Under the pieces are notes generated by a model. It did no database searches. It was not told the DNA's origin and was given only the letters and a program-made list of their open reading frames with translations. A program made the translations under genes and the position numbers. This document shows, piece by piece, positions 1 to 10,606 of a stretch of DNA of 10,606 nucleotides. The stretch's first letter is position 1. Every line of letters begins with the position of its first letter. The stretch is from an uncultured archaeon (GTDB taxonomy: Archaea > Asgardarchaeota > Thorarchaeia > Thorarchaeales > Thorarchaeaceae): contig CAYHAA010000035.1 of NCBI GenBank assembly GCA_964354495.1, forward strand, positions 1 to 10,606. The letters are read 5' to 3'.

Positions 1-46
1 TGACTCTTCAAAATGCATAGTTGACAACCTCTTGCGTGAGTCTTGC

Positions 47-105
47 CTGCGGGCGGGAGGGAGGTGTCTGCCTTATAGTTCCTTCGTATGAGGCTCTGTC
101 TGCCT
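47..105 (+). repeat. Dispersed intergenic hairpin repeat, copy R1 (long form)
   Basis: 75-99 ATAGTTCCTTCGTATGAGGCTCTGT matches 5018-5042 at 23/25 nt. The G-rich left arm CTGCGGGCGGGAGGGAGGTG resembles CTGCGGAGGGAGGAGAGTG at 4991-5009. Internal 9-bp direct repeat TGTCTGCCT at 65-73 and 97-105. Confidence 0.9.
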
Positions 106-122
106 ATATCCATGGACCTATT

Positions 123-607
123 GGCAAATCGATTATTGGAGGTATATACTATGGTTCATTGGAAGTATAAGGAGATATTCACTCGGAGGTACATGAACTG
201 TTCACCTCAGACTCTCTGGCAAGCACTGTCAGTGGCAAAGAGAATGCCTTCACCATCAAAACTCTCCTCTGAGTGGTTCATGAATTTCCTCATGCAATAT
301 GACAACCTGTGGACTAGGTCTGCCTACTACTACTACTTCAAAGTCATTTGTCAGGAACTGGGCAGTGAATGTCTATGCCCTGATGATATCTCTCACACTA
401 AGTACATCATTGCTTCTTTGGTTGACTTCTGGAGCAACACTAGGATTCATACCTCTTGTTGGAGCAGTCTTCTTCATCCTTTCAGATTCAGTTATTGGTA
501 TCAGAGAGTTTCATCATGACATTAGGAATGCAGAGATAATGATACTCTCAACATACTGTCCAGCAATCTTCCTTCTCTCATCAGGAGCGATTTTCTTCAC
601 ATTTTAG
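123..607 (+). pseudogene. yhhN: Decayed/truncated YhhN-family (lysoplasmalogenase-like) membrane protein gene; intact C-terminal part in ORF 299-607
   Basis: ORF 299-607 carries VYALMIS...GAVFFILSDSVIGIREF...ILSTY, the typical YhhN C-terminal pattern, but is only 102 aa. Upstream frame 3 reads IIGGIYYGSLEV*GDIHSEVHELF...AFT, resembling the YhhN GD..LF..AF segment with stops and frame changes. The 5' boundary is uncertain. Confidence 0.65.
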
Positions 608-2869: not shown

Positions 2870-3568
2870 CTATATGAACGGATACAGTCTCCCGCTCAAT
2901 AAGAACAGGCTCAGCATGAGTCCCGAGAGAAGAGCGAATGTGACAACTACCTCGACCCATCTCTGCGCGAATGTGATGCGGGGTATAAGGAATCCAATAT
3001 TCCTCCGATAGTCCAACCACGCCTCTGGAAACAATCCTCTTAGATGATGTTCCTCGAACAATGCGAGTCCTATGTATGCTAACATCATCGGGAACCAGAT
3101 TGCAAGTGTCATCTCTGGTGTGAGGTATCCGAAGCCGAACGTATGCTGAAGAATCCAGACACTCCTGTTTGTCAATGAGGCCGTGAACATGAGCAGGCCA
3201 AGGTACTGAGGATGCCTGACTATTCCATACGGCCCGGTAGTGACGAGTCTTTCTCGCTCACTGCGATGTAGGAACAATACTGAGTAAAACAAGAGGCCGA
3301 GCCCGAGAAGTGTCAGTGCTATCTCAACGAGTCCTCCACCGAGGAATAGAGTCAGTAACAGAGCTGGGAAATAGACAAAATCAGTCACCATCACGACAAG
3401 GTAGATGAATAAAGGCATGGTCATGAGCCCCACATAGAAGTTGGGGGCGGAGATGAGAAGGGGAAGTATGTACGACACTGCATTCACTATCACCCTTCTG
3501 ATTCGTTCTACGCTCCCTGCCTTTGCCGAGGGTTCCGTACTGCCATCGTTACCCGTTGTCATCGCCAA
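2870..3568 (-). CDS. Isoprenylcysteine carboxyl methyltransferase / PEMT-family integral membrane methyltransferase
   Basis: Multiple TM segments, family motif LVTTGPYGIVRHPQYLG, and downstream EE..L...F...W.DY. Start is TTG 3568 or ATG 3562. Confidence 0.85.
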   Translation of the reverse strand: MAMTTGNDGSTEPSAKAGSVERIRRVIVNAVSYILPLLISAPNFYVGLMTMPLFIYLVVMVTDFVYFPALLLTLFLGGGLVEIALTLLGLGLLFYSVLFLHRSERERLVTTGPYGIVRHPQYLGLLMFTASLTNRSVWILQHTFGFGYLTPEMTLAIWFPMMLAYIGLALFEEHHLRGLFPEAWLDYRRNIGFLIPRITFAQRWVEVVVTFALLSGLMLSLFLLSGRLYPFI

Positions 3569-3622: not shown

Positions 3623-3647
3623 GAAACAATCATAGCTGTAGACATCA

Positions 3648-3670
3648 TATATTTCCTTCGTAAGAGGCTC
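3648..3670 (+). repeat. Dispersed repeat copy R2a
   Basis: TATATTTCCTTCGTAAGAGGCTC matches 74-96 at 21/23 nt. Confidence 0.85.
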
Positions 3671-3813
3671 CTAATGCCATCAGCAATGGATGTAATAGCT
3701 AACCAATCATTGGAGGCGAGCCCTTTCGTTCATAAAGCCTGCAGTGAGATACTTAATCAAAGGTATTTGCGGTGTTCATCTGCAATCCTAATGGCAATCA
3801 CGGCGAGCAGCTG

Positions 3814-4873: not shown

Positions 4874-4911
4874 TCTTCGCAGCCGGAGTAGTCCAAGTCA
4901 ACGTTTGATGG

Positions 4912-4926
4912 TCAGGAGACTCCTGA
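4912..4926. promoter_or_regulatory. Perfect 15-bp palindrome (operator or hairpin)
   Basis: TCAGGAG-A-CTCCTGA, 38 nt after the stop of 4538-4873. Confidence 0.35.
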
Positions 4927-4990
4927 GATTTGGCACTCAAGGGAAGGTAACAGAAGCTTCTCTCTATGAACAATGCGGACTCTGGACTAA

Positions 4991-5042
4991 CTGCGGAGGG
5001 AGGAGAGTGCCCTGCTCATAGCTCCTTCGTATGAAGCTCTGT
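4991..5042 (+). repeat. Dispersed repeat copy R3 (long form)
   Basis: CTGCGGAGGGAGGAGAGTGCCCTGCTCATAGCTCCTTCGTATGAAGCTCTGT aligns along its length with 47-99; core 23/25 identical. Confidence 0.9.
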
Positions 5043-5259
5043 TTCCGTGTCTCATGAGATATGCAGTAGGGTCCTAACTCTACGTTTCATGATCAACTTG
5101 CTCAGTTCCTTTTTTGACTTCATGAATCATCTCAGTAGTTTCTGCTCGATTGGTGTTGTCAGAGCTATCATCAAGGATGCCGGAATAGATCATGTGCGCT
5201 CAGCATTGCTGGGTGGTGAAATATCGACTGAACAACCATCCGGTTCTCAGGCATTCTAA

Positions 5260-5290
5260 GACCGCGCTTAGCGGGTCAATTATGTTTAAG
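5260..5290 (+). promoter_or_regulatory. Hairpin plus candidate TATA box upstream of the flavodoxin gene
   Basis: GACC-G-CGC-TTA-GCG-G-GTC stem (5260-5277) and TTTAAG at 5285-5290, ~41 nt before ATG 5332. Confidence 0.35.
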
Positions 5291-5331
5291 AGTAGCATTT
5301 CAATAGGAACAGAGGCCGAGAATCGGACAGC

Positions 5332-5835
5332 ATGAACGCTATTGTGGTATACTATTCTAGAACCGGGACTACTAGGAAAGTAGCGGAAGGAATCTCAACA
5401 GCCCTCAAATGTGATGTTGAAGAAATCATTGATACGGAAAACAGGTCAGGCGTCATAGGTTGGCTGAAATCAGGCAGAGACGCAGGTCGAAAGGCATCAG
5501 CAGAGATTGAACCGCTGAAGAGAGATCCGGCCTCCTATGACATCGTGGTCATTGGAACCCCAATGTGGAACCACACACTTGCTACACCGGTCAGAGCCTA
5601 CATCACACAGTACAAGGATCGCTTCAAGAGAGTTGCCTTCTTCCGGACAGGAGCCAGCACTGACGACGACCCATTTGATGAAATGGAGTCCCTCTGCAGA
5701 AAAAAGCCAGTTGCCACCCTGAAACTCCGTAGAAAGTCACAAGTCGAAGCTAACCTGTATGAAGAAAGAGTCAGAGAATTCGCCGAAAGAATCACTACGG
5801 ATGCCCAGGACCCACGCACAAAACAGGCTAAGTAA
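5332..5835 (+). CDS. Flavodoxin-family protein
   Basis: FMN-binding loop VYYSRTGTT, YDIVVIGTPMW motif and VAFF.T strand; 167 aa. Confidence 0.92.
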   Translation: MNAIVVYYSRTGTTRKVAEGISTALKCDVEEIIDTENRSGVIGWLKSGRDAGRKASAEIEPLKRDPASYDIVVIGTPMWNHTLATPVRAYITQYKDRFKRVAFFRTGASTDDDPFDEMESLCRKKPVATLKLRRKSQVEANLYEERVREFAERITTDAQDPRTKQAK

Positions 5836-5919
5836 TAGGAGAAAGCCCCGTTCTAGCAATGGCTTTAGTGCACTGAACAAGTTAAATAGCTCTCATATAT
5901 GACTGCCAATCGGTGAGTC

Positions 5920-6861
5920 ATGTTGAGAGTGCTCGTGCTTGGTGGTACTGGCTTTCTGGGTTCAAGGATTGTCACCAGACTGAGCTCGCGTGGTCATGAG
6001 GTCACAATACTCACCCGTCGGACTGAGGCAGCAAAATACTTCGGTAGTAAGGGCATTGAAACGATTGTAGGGGACCTCATGGAGCCCGAGGCGTTCATAG
6101 ACAGCATAGGTCCGCAGGACTGCGTAGTCTCTGTTGCAATGCCTTTTGAGTTCGGAAGAATATCGAAGAGCAAGTTCGCTCAGATCAAGGAGAGGACGAC
6201 CAAGTTCGTGTCGACGGCTCTTACCATCGGGAAGAGACTCGACTGCCCTACCATACTGACTCTTGGCACTGCCTACAGCACTAAGCCAGGGCAAGTAGCT
6301 GACGAGTCTTGGCCACTTGTCCGGACGGGTCTCACGAAGGCTGGCGAAGAGGCGGACGTGCTTATTGCTAAGGCAAAGAAGGAGGGACAACCACTCATCA
6401 TAATGCTCCCGGGTCAGATCTATGGACCGGGTGGCCAGTTCCTCAAGATGTATGAGATGATGAAGAATGGGCGCTCGGGCGTCTTCGGGAGAGGTGACAA
6501 CCACATCCCGAGGGTACATGTCGATGACTGTGCTCAGGCCTTTGTTCTTGCCATAGAGAAACAGCCTGTGGGTGAGTCATTCATCATAGCTGACGACACT
6601 CCGTGTACCACGCGAGAATTCACAGAGCGCATGGCGGAGTGCATGGGACTGCCAAAGCCACGGACTGTTCCAATATTCATCGCTCGAATCGTTCTTGGTG
6701 GTCTTCTTCTGAGCGTTATACAGATGGACTGCGTGGTGACTAATGAGAAGGCCAAGAGAGAGCTGGGCTGGGAGCTGCAGTACCCCTCTTATCGAGAGGG
6801 TCTCAAGGCTACAATCGACTATCTACGTGAAGGTACGGTCCCAGGCCCGTCCGGATCATAA
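5920..6861 (+). CDS. NAD-dependent epimerase/dehydratase family (atypical SDR)
   Basis: Rossmann GGTGFLG, PGQIYGPG, VHVDDCAQA and C-terminal NEKAKRELGW.L.YPSYREGL. No clear YxxxK catalytic motif. Confidence 0.92.
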   Translation: MLRVLVLGGTGFLGSRIVTRLSSRGHEVTILTRRTEAAKYFGSKGIETIVGDLMEPEAFIDSIGPQDCVVSVAMPFEFGRISKSKFAQIKERTTKFVSTALTIGKRLDCPTILTLGTAYSTKPGQVADESWPLVRTGLTKAGEEADVLIAKAKKEGQPLIIMLPGQIYGPGGQFLKMYEMMKNGRSGVFGRGDNHIPRVHVDDCAQAFVLAIEKQPVGESFIIADDTPCTTREFTERMAECMGLPKPRTVPIFIARIVLGGLLLSVIQMDCVVTNEKAKRELGWELQYPSYREGLKATIDYLREGTVPGPSGS

Positions 6862-6873
6862 GAGACAAGAGCA

Positions 6874-6910
6874 GAGGTGATACTTACCTCGTATGAGGCC
6901 CTGTCCTGCG
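6874..6910 (+). repeat. Dispersed repeat copy R4
   Basis: GAGGTGAT box, perfect hairpin CCTC-GTAT-GAGG (6887-6898). 6889-6905 matches 84-100 at 16/17 nt. Followed by TGTCCTGCG (6902-6910). Confidence 0.8.
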
Positions 6911-6996
6911 ATGAACAAGAGAAGTAGTAATGAATCTTAATTCTCAACCCGTCGTAAGGCATATCAGAAAGGTCTGTCAGCATAAAATGACTGCTC

Positions 6997-7614
6997 ATGC
7001 AAAACACAGGTCATAGCCCCTATAATGTGACAAAAAGGGATGCAAAGAAGGTCATTGAAACCATGGTCCAGGCATTCTTTGATGACCCTCTATGGTGTCA
7101 TTTCTTTCCAGAACACAACAGCAGGTCAAGAGTCCTTCCGAGATTCTTCAACTACCGTGTTAGGAATGGTTTCATCGATGGGAAAATCTTTGCCACCTCT
7201 GAAAACATTGAGGGCGTTGTTATCCTTACACAATCGGAACGCAAGAAGTTTAGTTGGTTAAGGGCAATTAGAACTGGAGGGATCGGCCTGTATCGAGTAG
7301 CTGGGCCTGACGTTGTTAGAGAAATGCTAGAATTGGAGAGTTTTGTGGCCAGCAAGAGAGCTGAGTGTGTTTCTGAGCCCTATTGGTATCTAGGATCATT
7401 GGCAGTTCATCCAGATTATCAAGGGAAAGGTCTGGCCAGTAGACTCATTCGACCTGTACTCGAAATGTGCACATCACAAAACAGACTCTGCGTTCTGGAT
7501 ACTCAGAATGAACGTCTTGTACAAATGTACAAACATTATGGTTTCGATACTGTTGACTCATTCATGTTACCTGTGGTCAACATCCAACAATACATCATGG
7601 CCAGACAACCGTAG
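6997..7614 (+). CDS. GNAT-family N-acetyltransferase
   Basis: AFFDDPLW N-terminus, motif A YLGSLAVHPDYQGKGLASRLI, and motif B LDTQNE...MYKHYGF. Confidence 0.92.
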   Translation: MQNTGHSPYNVTKRDAKKVIETMVQAFFDDPLWCHFFPEHNSRSRVLPRFFNYRVRNGFIDGKIFATSENIEGVVILTQSERKKFSWLRAIRTGGIGLYRVAGPDVVREMLELESFVASKRAECVSEPYWYLGSLAVHPDYQGKGLASRLIRPVLEMCTSQNRLCVLDTQNERLVQMYKHYGFDTVDSFMLPVVNIQQYIMARQP

Positions 7615-7661
7615 TAATAGGGGACCTCTTCTCTACATTGCCAAAGAGAAAGACCGAGTAT

Positions 7662-7697
7662 GGAGAGTGTCCTGCGTATAGTTCCTTCGCATGAGGC
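7662..7697 (+). repeat. Dispersed repeat copy R5
   Basis: GGAGAGTGTCCTGCG followed by TATAGTTCCTTCGCATGAGGC (7677-7697), which matches 74-94 at 20/21 nt. Confidence 0.9.
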
Positions 7698-7818
7698 GCT
7701 ATCGCTCTTCTACACAAAGGATGGATTCAGACAGAAGCAAATGTGCCCCGCGTTGTTTCACTATTTGAGTATCCGGTATTGAGAAGAATTATCTGAGTGC
7801 TCATCGATACGGTACGAG

Positions 7819-8208
7819 GTGATTCTTGGAGTGAGCGGACCAGACCCCCGAAAGGTCGTCCTCAAGTATATCAAGGCAATCAATTCGCGAAACTCTGAAG
7901 CGCTCGTGGCGTTGCAAACCGAGGACTTCACCTTCATCAACTATGAGGGAGATGCCTACGTTGGTCGAGCTGGATGGCGTGACTACTTCACCGCATACCC
8001 GGAGTACAAGATACACGTGGATAGGCTCATCACCAGCGGGACTGGCGTTGCAATCATCGGGCGGACGACCGGCTGTCATGTTGGTCCGGAGGTCGAAGCA
8101 AGATGGACAGTGCTCTGGACTGCAGAGGTCAGACAGAATCTTATCGCTGAATGGCGTATCTACTCGGATGCTGAGGAGATCAGAGGGGCAATAGAAGCGG
8201 GACGGTGA
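7819..8208 (+). CDS. SnoaL-like / NTF2-fold protein
   Basis: V..YI.AIN..N...L..L..EDF..I...G....G...W..YF...P.Y......L pattern. GAGGTGAT at 7816-7823 suggests the real start is the in-frame GTG 7831. Confidence 0.8.
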   Translation: MILGVSGPDPRKVVLKYIKAINSRNSEALVALQTEDFTFINYEGDAYVGRAGWRDYFTAYPEYKIHVDRLITSGTGVAIIGRTTGCHVGPEVEARWTVLWTAEVRQNLIAEWRIYSDAEEIRGAIEAGR

Positions 8209-8323
8209 TGCCGGAGTTATCGAGACGATATCCACGTACCGTGAGAAGATCTGTAAGACAACGGCCCATGCGAATCCTCTATATGGCTAAGAATGAAACA
8301 CTCATTCTGCGAGAGATGGTGTA

Positions 8324-8887
8324 TTGGCTGATATTGACAAAAGTGCGAAGAAATCTGCATTTGCTATTGTCATTCTCAGGATTCTCTTGACACCTGCATT
8401 CTTCTATGCATTCATGTGGGACTTCACTGAGATTGCAGTCATTCTCTATCTTGCAGCATTTGCCTCTGATATTGTAGACGGCATCTTGGCAAGGAGGCAA
8501 GGAATAATCCCGTCATCGCCCGTCGAGGCCTATCTTGATCCTGTAGCTGATTTTGTGTTAATCTTCGCATCTTTCTATGTATTCTCTCTCAAACAGTTCT
8601 ACCCCTCTTGGATCTTGTTTGTATTTGTCCTCATGTTCCTATTCTTCATCATCTCGTCGAGCAAGAAAGAGCCCCTTTACGATCCTGTGGGAAAATACTA
8701 TGGAACATTTCTCATGACCACAATTGGAATCACTCTCTTCTTTCCAACAGAGCCTGTCTTCAATGGCGTTCTACTTCTCATCATTGGATATACAGCTGGC
8801 TTGGTCATCTATCGAGCAGTCTATCTCTGGAATAATCGAAAAGAAAATGAGGGTCTGAGGTTCTCTGAGGAAGTGAAGACAAGATAG
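8324..8887 (+). CDS. CDP-alcohol phosphatidyltransferase family protein
   Basis: SDIVDGILARR...EAYLDPVAD matches DxxDGxxAR...GxxxDxxxD except that G2 is E. Multiple TM helices; TTG start. Confidence 0.85.
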   Translation: MADIDKSAKKSAFAIVILRILLTPAFFYAFMWDFTEIAVILYLAAFASDIVDGILARRQGIIPSSPVEAYLDPVADFVLIFASFYVFSLKQFYPSWILFVFVLMFLFFIISSSKKEPLYDPVGKYYGTFLMTTIGITLFFPTEPVFNGVLLLIIGYTAGLVIYRAVYLWNNRKENEGLRFSEEVKTR

Positions 8888-8909
8888 GCAACAGTGTGAG
8901 TGAGACGCT

Positions 8910-9461
8910 ATGAACAAGAAACGAGTCTGCGGTCTGACGTGTATCATCGTCATTGCAGGACTGATAATCAGCGGAGTGATTATTGTCAACCTCAATAGTG
9001 TTGAGATAGTTCGGGATGTGGCAATCAACAATCCAGATGGGTCAACCGGCACGGCATTCGTGGTGTTCCGACCCGGAGTGACAGGTTTCAACGAGGCTGT
9101 GGTGAATGAATTCGTTCGCGGACTAGTAGACTCGGACTGGCGAGTGGAAGTGACCACGAGTTCATCGGTGACCCCCACAAATATGACTGGATATGACCTG
9201 ATTGTTCTAGGGAGCCCAACGAACGGGGCAAAACCACACGCATCGATGCTTGACTATCTCACACGTGTTGATTTTGGAGGAAGGCCTGTCGTGTTGATCC
9301 TTACGTCTGGTGGACTAGGTGGAGCTGGACTTGACCACTTCAGGAATGCAACTATCGACGCAAATGGCGTGGTCCTTAGTGCAATGCAATTCGCGATATA
9401 TGAGATGGATGCAGGAAGCAGAGCCTATACTGCTGGGACCGAGGTGTCGTTGGAACCATAG
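8910..9461 (+). CDS. Membrane-anchored flavodoxin-fold protein
   Basis: Basic N-terminus plus a single TM (CIIVIAGLIISGVIIV), then AFVVF.PG, YDLIVLGSPT and PVVLILTSGG flavodoxin-fold strands. It starts 22 nt after the previous stop, so co-transcription is likely. Confidence 0.7.
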   Translation: MNKKRVCGLTCIIVIAGLIISGVIIVNLNSVEIVRDVAINNPDGSTGTAFVVFRPGVTGFNEAVVNEFVRGLVDSDWRVEVTTSSSVTPTNMTGYDLIVLGSPTNGAKPHASMLDYLTRVDFGGRPVVLILTSGGLGGAGLDHFRNATIDANGVVLSAMQFAIYEMDAGSRAYTAGTEVSLEP

Positions 9462-9618
9462 TCTGAGTAGTCTGCACGTACATTGCAAACCCATGAACTG
9501 TTCTCTTCGACCGTGCCCCAAGGACTATTGCTGCTAAGATCCACTCAAGAACAACCGCTAATGGTCATAGTCCCTCATTCTGCTATTCGCTTGTCAATGA
9601 ACTATCTCAGGAATAAGG

Positions 9619-10431
9619 ATGATAGATCATTGCTTCGAAAGCAAGTCCCATAAGCAACATTCATCGAAATCCATCTCTATGGGCGTGACTACTCAGAATT
9701 ACTACGTTCAGAGGAAGGACTATTGGCTAAAATTCTACCATAGCATGGTCGATAATAAGAAGGTTCAACAACTCGTGCTGGAAAAATACCTTAGTCCTGA
9801 AAAGATCCCTGAAATGAAGTCAAGAATACAACAGCAATTTGAAGAATTACTACCACAGATTCCGGATTTTGGAAACAAGCGAATTAACCCCTTTTCCAGG
9901 GAAATGATTAGGACCGCTCTATCTCTAGTGTTCTATCGGGTCCTCAAAGCAGAGGGATTTCAATTACAGACGATCGGACAGATGCTGTATGAATTCGCTG
10001 ATGTCTATTATGGAAGTCTAAACCCGTTCATCAAATACCTCATGCGTCGGCCTTACTTCTCTTCGTATTTTCAAAAGAAGGCAAAGAACGCGTTAGAAAG
10101 ACGAAAAGCATCGGTTGATCCCGAGGACTATCATTGCGTTTTCGTTGAAGGTGATAAAGAAAATCTCCTCTTTGGCGTAGATTACACCAATTGTGGAGGT
10201 CTGAATTTCCTAAAGCATCAAAATGCTCTAGAGCTAGCACCTTACCTCTGTCTGTGCGACTACCCAATGTACAGGGCAATCAAAGTTGGTTTTAATCGTG
10301 CTGAGAATTTGGCGATTGGTGGGGCGAGGTGTGCCTTTCGTTTTTATCGTAGTTATCCAACATTGAAAGGCTGGCCACCCGAAGAAGTAAGTGAATACAA
10401 AGACTTCAATTTTGCTAAACAGAAACCATAG
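9619..10431 (+). CDS. L-2-amino-thiazoline-4-carboxylic acid (ATC) hydrolase family protein (V4R-like fold)
   Basis: FGVDYTNCG, LAPYLCLCDY and R..NLAIGGARCAFRF Cys motifs typical of the family. The real start may be ATG 9679 (MGVTTQNYY). Confidence 0.8.
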   Translation: MIDHCFESKSHKQHSSKSISMGVTTQNYYVQRKDYWLKFYHSMVDNKKVQQLVLEKYLSPEKIPEMKSRIQQQFEELLPQIPDFGNKRINPFSREMIRTALSLVFYRVLKAEGFQLQTIGQMLYEFADVYYGSLNPFIKYLMRRPYFSSYFQKKAKNALERRKASVDPEDYHCVFVEGDKENLLFGVDYTNCGGLNFLKHQNALELAPYLCLCDYPMYRAIKVGFNRAENLAIGGARCAFRFYRSYPTLKGWPPEEVSEYKDFNFAKQKP

Positions 10432-10499: not shown

Positions 10500-10606
10500 A
10501 GCATTCCCAATAGCATAGTCATTGCGCTCTTGCCCTCTTTCTCCCCCTCCTACCGTTCATTGTAAGTTGTACAATCTTGGACACCAGAGCGTTGTACCCC
10601 CAGGAA

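Follow-up and report, generated by a model that had tools for sequence, protein, structure and literature searches.

Platforms that accumulate gene cassettes are known in bacteria and, in the form of integrons with an IntI integrase and attC sites, in some archaea. Related arrangements extend beyond the integron. The dif modules of Acinetobacter plasmids are gene modules that lie between short recombination sites and are moved between replicons and strains, and in the tycheposon islands of Prochlorococcus cargo accretes in tandem at one attachment site or hotspot; these systems work with XerC/D or with tyrosine or serine integrases, at palindromic or tRNA-derived sites. A Xer/dif site comprises two 11-bp inverted arms and a 6-bp spacer (PMC2958812). 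Archaeal integrons have to date been found by means of IntI and attC models (Ghaly et al. 2022, PMC9668308), and such models would not detect the repeat described here.

The stretch of DNA that we analysed (the window, 10,606 nt) is the entire contig C35 of a Thorarchaeota genome (G000; 3.3 Mb in 51 contigs, 97.7% complete). It carries a cassette-like locus of an unusual kind, lacking an integrase, from an Asgard archaeon, and a search of the literature found no description of this array. In common with sedentary chromosomal integrons and CALINs, of which the VCR arrays of Vibrio are an example, the array occupies one chromosomal locus with a fixed anchor, holds a long row of mostly single-gene, unrelated accessory modules (GNAT, SnoaL, flavodoxin, methyltransferases) and is built on co-oriented, lineage-specific repeats, with the order of the modules varying among relatives. 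Unlike in those systems, the genomes that carry the array mostly lack a tyrosine recombinase and lack IntI, the repeat has neither R''/R' boxes (RYYYAAC / GTTRRRY) nor an attC-type hairpin, and the modules bring about 100 nt of leader of their own, have genes on either strand and adjoin a repeat that is promoter-like. Thus, although co-oriented, mostly single-gene cassettes of variable order are present, the locus is not a member of the integron/CALIN class because neither IntI nor the boxes and fold of attC were found. The array is integron-like, and there is no known recombinase for it.

Dif modules and tycheposons differ from the array in that no such recombinase or site was found at it; the arms of the consensus agree at 5 of 11 positions as an inverted repeat by inspection, and a PF00589 gene is absent; the array is not of the Xer/dif type. 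Homologous recombination at dispersed promoter or intergenic repeats provides a further parallel, with short non-coding repeats as crossover points, but passive dispersed repeats of that kind share neither the confinement to one locus nor the complete co-orientation and sharp 17-nt conservation seen here. An integron-like organization without an integrase or an attC fold, meaning a single anchor, lineage-specific repeats that all point one way, single-gene modules in shuffled order and junctions in a 17-nt core, would be a second route to an exchangeable array of accessory genes, and it would bear on how Asgard archaea gain and shuffle genes.

A repeat array beside an acyl-CoA dehydrogenase gene

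The repeat possesses a near-invariant 22-nt core, TTATA followed by GTTCCTTCGTATGAGGC, and more weakly conserved arms. There are five real copies in G000, all on the plus strand and all on this 10.6-kb contig; other matches, to a 16-mer with three mismatches, are found across the 3.3-Mb genome in a number expected by chance. The array is anchored at the minus-strand start of an acyl-CoA dehydrogenase gene (ACAD), codons 1-6 of which (MHFEES) occupy positions 1-18. The remainder lies on contig C34, whose final 55 nt are identical to window positions 1-55 (a contig overlap) and whose minus-strand ORF at 9669-10919 contains all three Acyl-CoA_dh domains. The first repeat, R1, spans 57-105 as a full unit and consists of TGTCTGCCT at 65-73, TATA, the 17-nt core at 78-94 and the 9-mer again at 97-105. 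R2 (3635-3679) is 84 nt from the start of a PEMT/ICMT-like gene (2870-3568, minus strand), and R3 spans 5000-5044. R4 (6864-6910) has a core at 6883-6899 with three mismatches to the consensus, and its left arm is cut to about 15 nt by the stop codon of an epimerase gene (6859-6861). R5 (7661-7704) has a core at 7681-7697 with one mismatch.

Among 28 genomes of the genus, 19 have their copies grouped on a single contig and strand at intervals of 0.4-2.5 kb; a reversed-pattern control gave 0-1 matches per genome. There is one repeat locus per genome across the genus, always on the same strand, and of 116 matches to a profile of the repeat unit in the collected contigs (oriented by ACAD), all significant ones are co-oriented. 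A distance of about 63 nt separates the first copy from the start codon of ACAD in at least 11 genomes of the genus. A single copy upstream of ACAD, sometimes diverged, is also present in other genera and in members of the genus that have no array; G183, from one other genus, has an array, and beyond the family the repeat gives chance-level matches only. Because array-less genomes and other genera keep the single upstream copy, we infer that the ACAD-proximal copy is ancestral and that the arrays would be expansions from there.

Several internal copies in G012 retain a perfect 17-mer, with the TATA part and the arms unrelated, which looks like selection on the 17-mer itself. Orthologues of R4 decay freely, with 0-3 mismatches at varying positions. 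An exact 17-mer match on a viral contig was taken as chance; its flanks are unrelated, and the DNA is that of metagenome locus L072. Partial duplicates of the ACAD 5' end precede internal repeat copies in two relatives, exceeding 130 nt in G023 (contig C181, locus L044, at about 11800-11900 of the flipped locus) and amounting to about 35 nt in G002 (contig C131, locus L043, 6850-6920). These duplicates would be traces of recombination within the start of the ACAD gene.

The modules between repeats contain one to four genes of unrelated functions on either strand. They include flavodoxin, NAD epimerase, GNAT, SnoaL-like and CDP-alcohol phosphatidyltransferase genes, together with PEMT/ICMT-like methyltransferases, a Na+/H+ antiporter and PKD-domain surface proteins; the G+C content of neighbouring genes spreads over 41-55%, against 47.7% for the genome. 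Their order is highly variable. The epimerase module is the first after ACAD in G004 and G017, the fourth in G000 and the seventh in G012, and a membrane-protein module, F16, follows ACAD in G016, the epimerase in G017 and F6 in G014. What comes after the epimerase and R4 is equally diverse: GNAT in G000 and G004, an ATC-hydrolase-like gene directly in G012, F16 in G017 and other sequence on metagenome contigs L071 and L073. At the G012 junction with the ATC-hydrolase-like gene, window positions 9618-9725 match at 93.5%; the corresponding 2.7-kb difference between G000 and G012 (6900-9617) has no recognizable repeat at its right end.

The GNAT module and its flanking 9-mers

The 205-aa gene at 6997-7614 (plus strand) is a predicted GNAT-family N-acetyltransferase, according to its Pfam domains and its orthologues. 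It matches PF00583 (Acetyltransf_1) with 43.8 bits (3.6e-11; cut-off 20.7), PF13508 (Acetyltransf_7) with 39.3 bits and PF13673 (Acetyltransf_10) with 33.7 bits, as well as FR47, all above the curated cut-offs. Orthologues with 62-73% identity occur in five other genomes (six loci, three genera). Every one of the six has a repeat copy some 95-110 nt upstream, amid differing neighbours, whereas none of 14 paralogue loci (30-40% identity) has an upstream copy. The gene is preceded by the epimerase in G000 and G004, by other genes in G002 and G009 and by ACAD in G272, which belongs to another genus; the epimerase-GNAT locus of G004 has 84% DNA identity to the window. The initial annotation, in which the gene figured as a possible cassette, had regarded synteny of GNAT and both flanks across relatives as the observation that would speak against it; the neighbours differ among relatives. 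On these comparisons the GNAT gene appears to be an exchangeable module of a hypervariable array that begins beside ACAD in this Thorarchaeota lineage.

Ahead of the GNAT gene, the first rightward ATG of the module opens a conserved small ORF (6930-7016, plus strand, 28 codons, MNLNSQ..RxIRKV), which is also found in G004, G002, G272 and G222 (loci L042, L043, L079 and L080). Its start and N-terminal peptide are the same in five of the six orthologous loci. It begins 29-30 nt past the repeat core, behind a purine-rich stretch, and 67-70 nt before the GNAT start, runs for 16-28 or more codons and overlaps the GNAT start codon in another frame. A leader peptide is one possible product; alternatively, the ORF may be a micro-gene whose translation is coupled to that of its neighbour.

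Two exact copies of TGTCCTGCG, both on the plus strand, are present in the window, one in the right arm of R4 (6902-6910) and one in the left arm of R5 (7668-7676), beside the two cores as originally noted. The first starts at a 3-nt offset from the R4 core, and a gap of 4 nt, TATA, separates the second from the R5 core; the distance from 9-mer to 9-mer is 766 nt and that from core to core 798 nt. From this arrangement the initial annotation had proposed the footprint of an integrated circular cassette or a target-site duplication. Transposon target-site and attL/attR duplications do take the form of a short exact direct repeat flanking a gene, and both the 9/9 identity and the symmetrical placement of the copies relative to the two cores fit the insertion of a GNAT element between two pre-existing cores. 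We nevertheless consider a duplication of that origin highly improbable. The pair is no chance match, yet it is tied to the repeat unit. The consensus of 90 repeat copies collected in relatives reads TGCCCTGCT-TATA on the left side and TCTGTCTGCC on the right, and a TGYC(C)TGC motif is common to both arms. A sequence within two mismatches of TGTCCTGCG occurs in the 20 nt left of the core in 19 of the 90 copies (21%), compared with 46 of 5000 random windows (0.9%). Hence, in contrast to a target-site duplication, the 9-mer sits inside a larger unit that recurs at unrelated modules.

Other loci point in the same direction. At R1, TGTCTGCCT flanks a single core on both sides with no gene insert between; flanking 9-mers are therefore a property of the unit, independent of the gene. 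G004 has, at its orthologous locus, TGTCCTGCG in the R4 right arm and TGCCCTGCT in the R5 left arm, a 7/9 match, so perfect identity is specific to G000 and, unlike that of a target-site duplication, is not kept at orthologous loci. The GNAT orthologue loci of G002, G009, G272 and G222 miss the downstream repeat copy or both 9-mers. Neither a transposase nor terminal inverted repeats marking the ends of an element were found, and the linkage analysis presented below places both 9-mers within the module. The two 9-mers are best read as arms built into the repeat unit, the right one of R4 and the left one of R5, and the 9/9 match of G000 as a local coincidence between related arms, which would exclude a duplication made by insertion. 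What survives of the cassette idea is a discrete, exchangeable GNAT module between co-oriented repeats; its interpretation of the 9-mers as an integration-made duplication does not. In practical terms, the 9-bp repeat should not be taken for the scar of an insertion, and what is exchanged extends from one core to the next.

A recombination between the two 9-mers that removes about 766 bp had likewise been envisaged; the natural partners are instead the cores of 17-22 nt, 798 nt apart. No public sequencing run contains more than 18% of sampled words of 4900-8300. Public contigs from four runs yielded neither the suggested empty allele joining 6910 to 7677 nor the circle junction, and the GNAT module by itself was seen neither excised nor missing from its site. 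In X1 and X2 the GNAT part (7081-7788) is uncovered and the epimerase and SnoaL genes are covered. One public contig fuses 4986 to 7818 via 140 other letters, one has a joint at 6899, exactly where the R4 core ends, and one repeats the G012-type junction before 9617. These joints hint at other arrangements in related populations.

Junctions in the core and the probable route of exchange

Junctions between modules were mapped by pairwise comparison of 97 repeat copies. In pairs related only in their left flank (n=259), identity is raised from -40 to about +8 of the 17-mer and falls to baseline beyond; in pairs related only in their right flank (n=36), it is at baseline left of the core and raised from about +9 onward. 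The switch at +8/+9 therefore locates the junctions inside GTTCCTTCG|TATGAGGC of the 17-nt core, at a resolution for which a fixed crossover and homologous exchange within the roughly 20 conserved bases give the same pattern. It follows that the left arm goes with the upstream module and the right arm with the downstream module, and therefore that both copies of TGTCCTGCG lie inside the GNAT module, near its ends. This module extends from core to core over 6883-7680 (plus strand, 798 bp), with its exchange points inside the cores. Recombination between the R4 and R5 cores would remove or circularize 798 bp and leave a hybrid repeat between both 9-mers, which is the layout of R1.

How the exchange takes place can be approached from the same observations. 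Our preferred mechanism, which we hold to be probable though well short of assured, is homologous recombination between promoter-bearing repeats. Exchange would occur by ordinary homologous recombination between the short conserved repeats and within shared genes, and looped-out or circular intermediates would carry modules in and out. Intermediates that recombine at the repeats are proposed because co-orientation is complete despite many opposite-strand genes; inverted promoter copies carried by the genes themselves would not yield uniform co-orientation. Homologous recombination is favored because an integrase and a fold are absent, because of a tract that distinguishes two strains, and because the ACAD fragments vary. 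The tract is seen on comparison of G012 with a contig of a near-identical strain: three differences in 7.7 kb are followed by about 6% divergence, which begins 340 nt inside the epimerase gene and runs through the repeat, the sequences being unrelated beyond. This tract would be the product of homologous recombination. The ACAD fragments of unequal length in G002 and G023 look like homologous or illegitimate events, with a fixed crossover unlikely. Several observations count against this reading: the shared homology of about 22-35 nt is short for efficiency, some copies sit between convergent gene ends, the 2.7-kb difference from G012 reaches no recognizable repeat on its right side, no excised GNAT module was seen, and the combination of a promoter with homologous recombination leaves the perfect 17-mers of G012 unexplained.

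Those 17-mers would find an explanation in a dedicated site-specific system, an analogue of the integron in which an unrecognized recombinase moves circular modules at the 17-22 nt core. The recombinase might be encoded elsewhere or on a mobile element, the ACAD-proximal copy would be the primary site and the TGYC(C)TGC arms accessory binding sites. Such a system would account for the fixed anchor and single locus per genome, for complete co-orientation though about 40% of array genes are on the other strand, for a sharply bounded core amid variable arms (including the G012 copies with unrelated flanks), for the restriction of junctions to the core and for the frequency of single-gene modules; by eye, the core also has an imperfect 7-7-7 layout, CTTATAG / TTCCTTC / GTATGAG. 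We regard it as unlikely but as a serious rival, giving it more weight than any other departure from the preferred mechanism, since the enzyme searches, the properties of the core and the traces of recombination all speak against it. No PF00589 tyrosine recombinase was found in G000, with a control that matched in 14 of 14 genomes, or in the array-bearing genomes G004, G012, G014, G016, G017, G019 and G042. G000 likewise gave no match to the Y1 HUH transposase (PF01797), for which the control worked, or to Cas1 (PF01867), and none to PF04986, for which the control was silent too. Serine recombinases are represented in it solely by a pair of 201-aa genes located on other contigs, and none of the flanking genes examined beside arrays encodes a recombinase. 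The core shows little palindromic symmetry, and as single strands the repeats fold like shuffled sequence: for 80-nt units of all five copies, taken on each strand, z ranged from -0.9 to +1.15 relative to shuffles. The free decay of the R4 orthologues, the homologous appearance of the ACAD 5' duplications and the strain tract add to these objections.

A broader formulation, which we put forward tentatively, is that the array is an Asgard gene-capture platform that operates without an integron integrase and whose 22-bp core serves both as attachment site and as bidirectional promoter; if this is true, captured genes would be expressed in either orientation. Its agent could conceivably be an unrecognized recombinase, or else a recombination pathway of the host that a 17-mer-binding protein brings to the site, a suggestion that we likewise rate as doubtful.

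Several further candidates were set aside. An apparent left-arm hairpin, of types A and B with what looked like compensatory changes, was rejected when the folds of 68 arms did not surpass those of shuffled sequence (mean z -0.32). For want of a matching motif or enzyme we also dismissed replication-origin ORB elements, C/D-box RNA and IS200/IS91-type ends; Rfam gave no match at the repeats. No tRNA gene lies in the window, which rules out a tRNA-derived attachment site. Across the genus, genomes that do have a tyrosine recombinase (G020, G024, G015, G018 and G011) are mostly array-less, and vice versa. A division into two subclades might account for this anticorrelation, as might gaps in the assemblies.

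Promoter-like geometry and other features of the window

The repeat is probably a promoter usable both ways and derived from that of ACAD, as judged from its geometry. Archaeal TATA/BRE promoters have an AT-rich box about 25 nt ahead of the transcription start. In G000, TATA-like hexamers are most frequent 55-60 nt ahead of start codons, and Shine-Dalgarno motifs have their peak at -12. The box of the repeat, TTATAG/CTATAA, stands 40-52 nt ahead of the first rightward ATG in several modules and 55-64 nt ahead of the minus-strand starts of ACAD and F16. The promoter reading follows from these distances between box and start codon, which in both directions are usual for G000. Each copy, derived from the ACAD promoter, would drive the adjoining genes in both directions. 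At least eight of about 52 copies fit a promoter poorly, being placed between convergent gene ends.

It is tempting to ask whether regulation is all that the repeats provide. They would then be a promoter or operator copied together with the ACAD leader, and the variability of the locus would reflect ordinary gene gain and loss. The promoter-like geometry in both directions is compatible with a purely regulatory role, as are the conservation of the ACAD-proximal copy across the family, with or without arrays, and the presence of an HxlR/PadR-like regulator in the conserved distal flank. However, opposite-strand genes lack inverted copies, some copies are found where two convergent genes end, the point at which homology between genomes changes over is exactly within the core, and the repeat occurs nowhere else in the genome. 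A role confined to regulation is, in our estimation, improbable, and clearly more so than a dedicated recombination system.

The right end of the window bears no relation to the array. At 10552-10606 the contig breaks off in the terminal part of a multicopy element, of which other contigs of the genome carry at least 18 copies, and many different loose contig ends fall at 10550-10552 among the public contigs. On contig C24, some 2.5 kb separate one copy of the element from a gene for a 201-aa serine recombinase, and because of this proximity the element is probably an end of IS607/TnpB type. Another copy (C25, 3011-3042) is about 2 kb from the HxlR/PadR-like gene (C25, 5121-5516) by which the array's conserved distal flank is recognized in relatives; owing to this placement, C25 is probably the continuation of the array locus.

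Two observations concern the left end. An ORF of 143 aa at 88-519 (plus strand) has its ATG inside the R1 core, is rich in Cys and Trp and gave no Pfam match. Window DNA at 68-250 is 72-77% conserved downstream of repeats that precede the 3' end of a PKD-domain surface-protein gene in G012 and G014. The region 88-519 may be non-coding, or may contain a small gene that starts from the ATG at 112. In the leader of ACAD (window 20-60, minus strand), CCTCTCGC is able to pair with the Shine-Dalgarno region, GCAAGAGG. Folding of the ACAD leader as the plus strand gives an 8-bp stem in several genomes, and the same region is found in L042, L045 and L049; the stem may be a hairpin that sequesters the ribosome-binding site.
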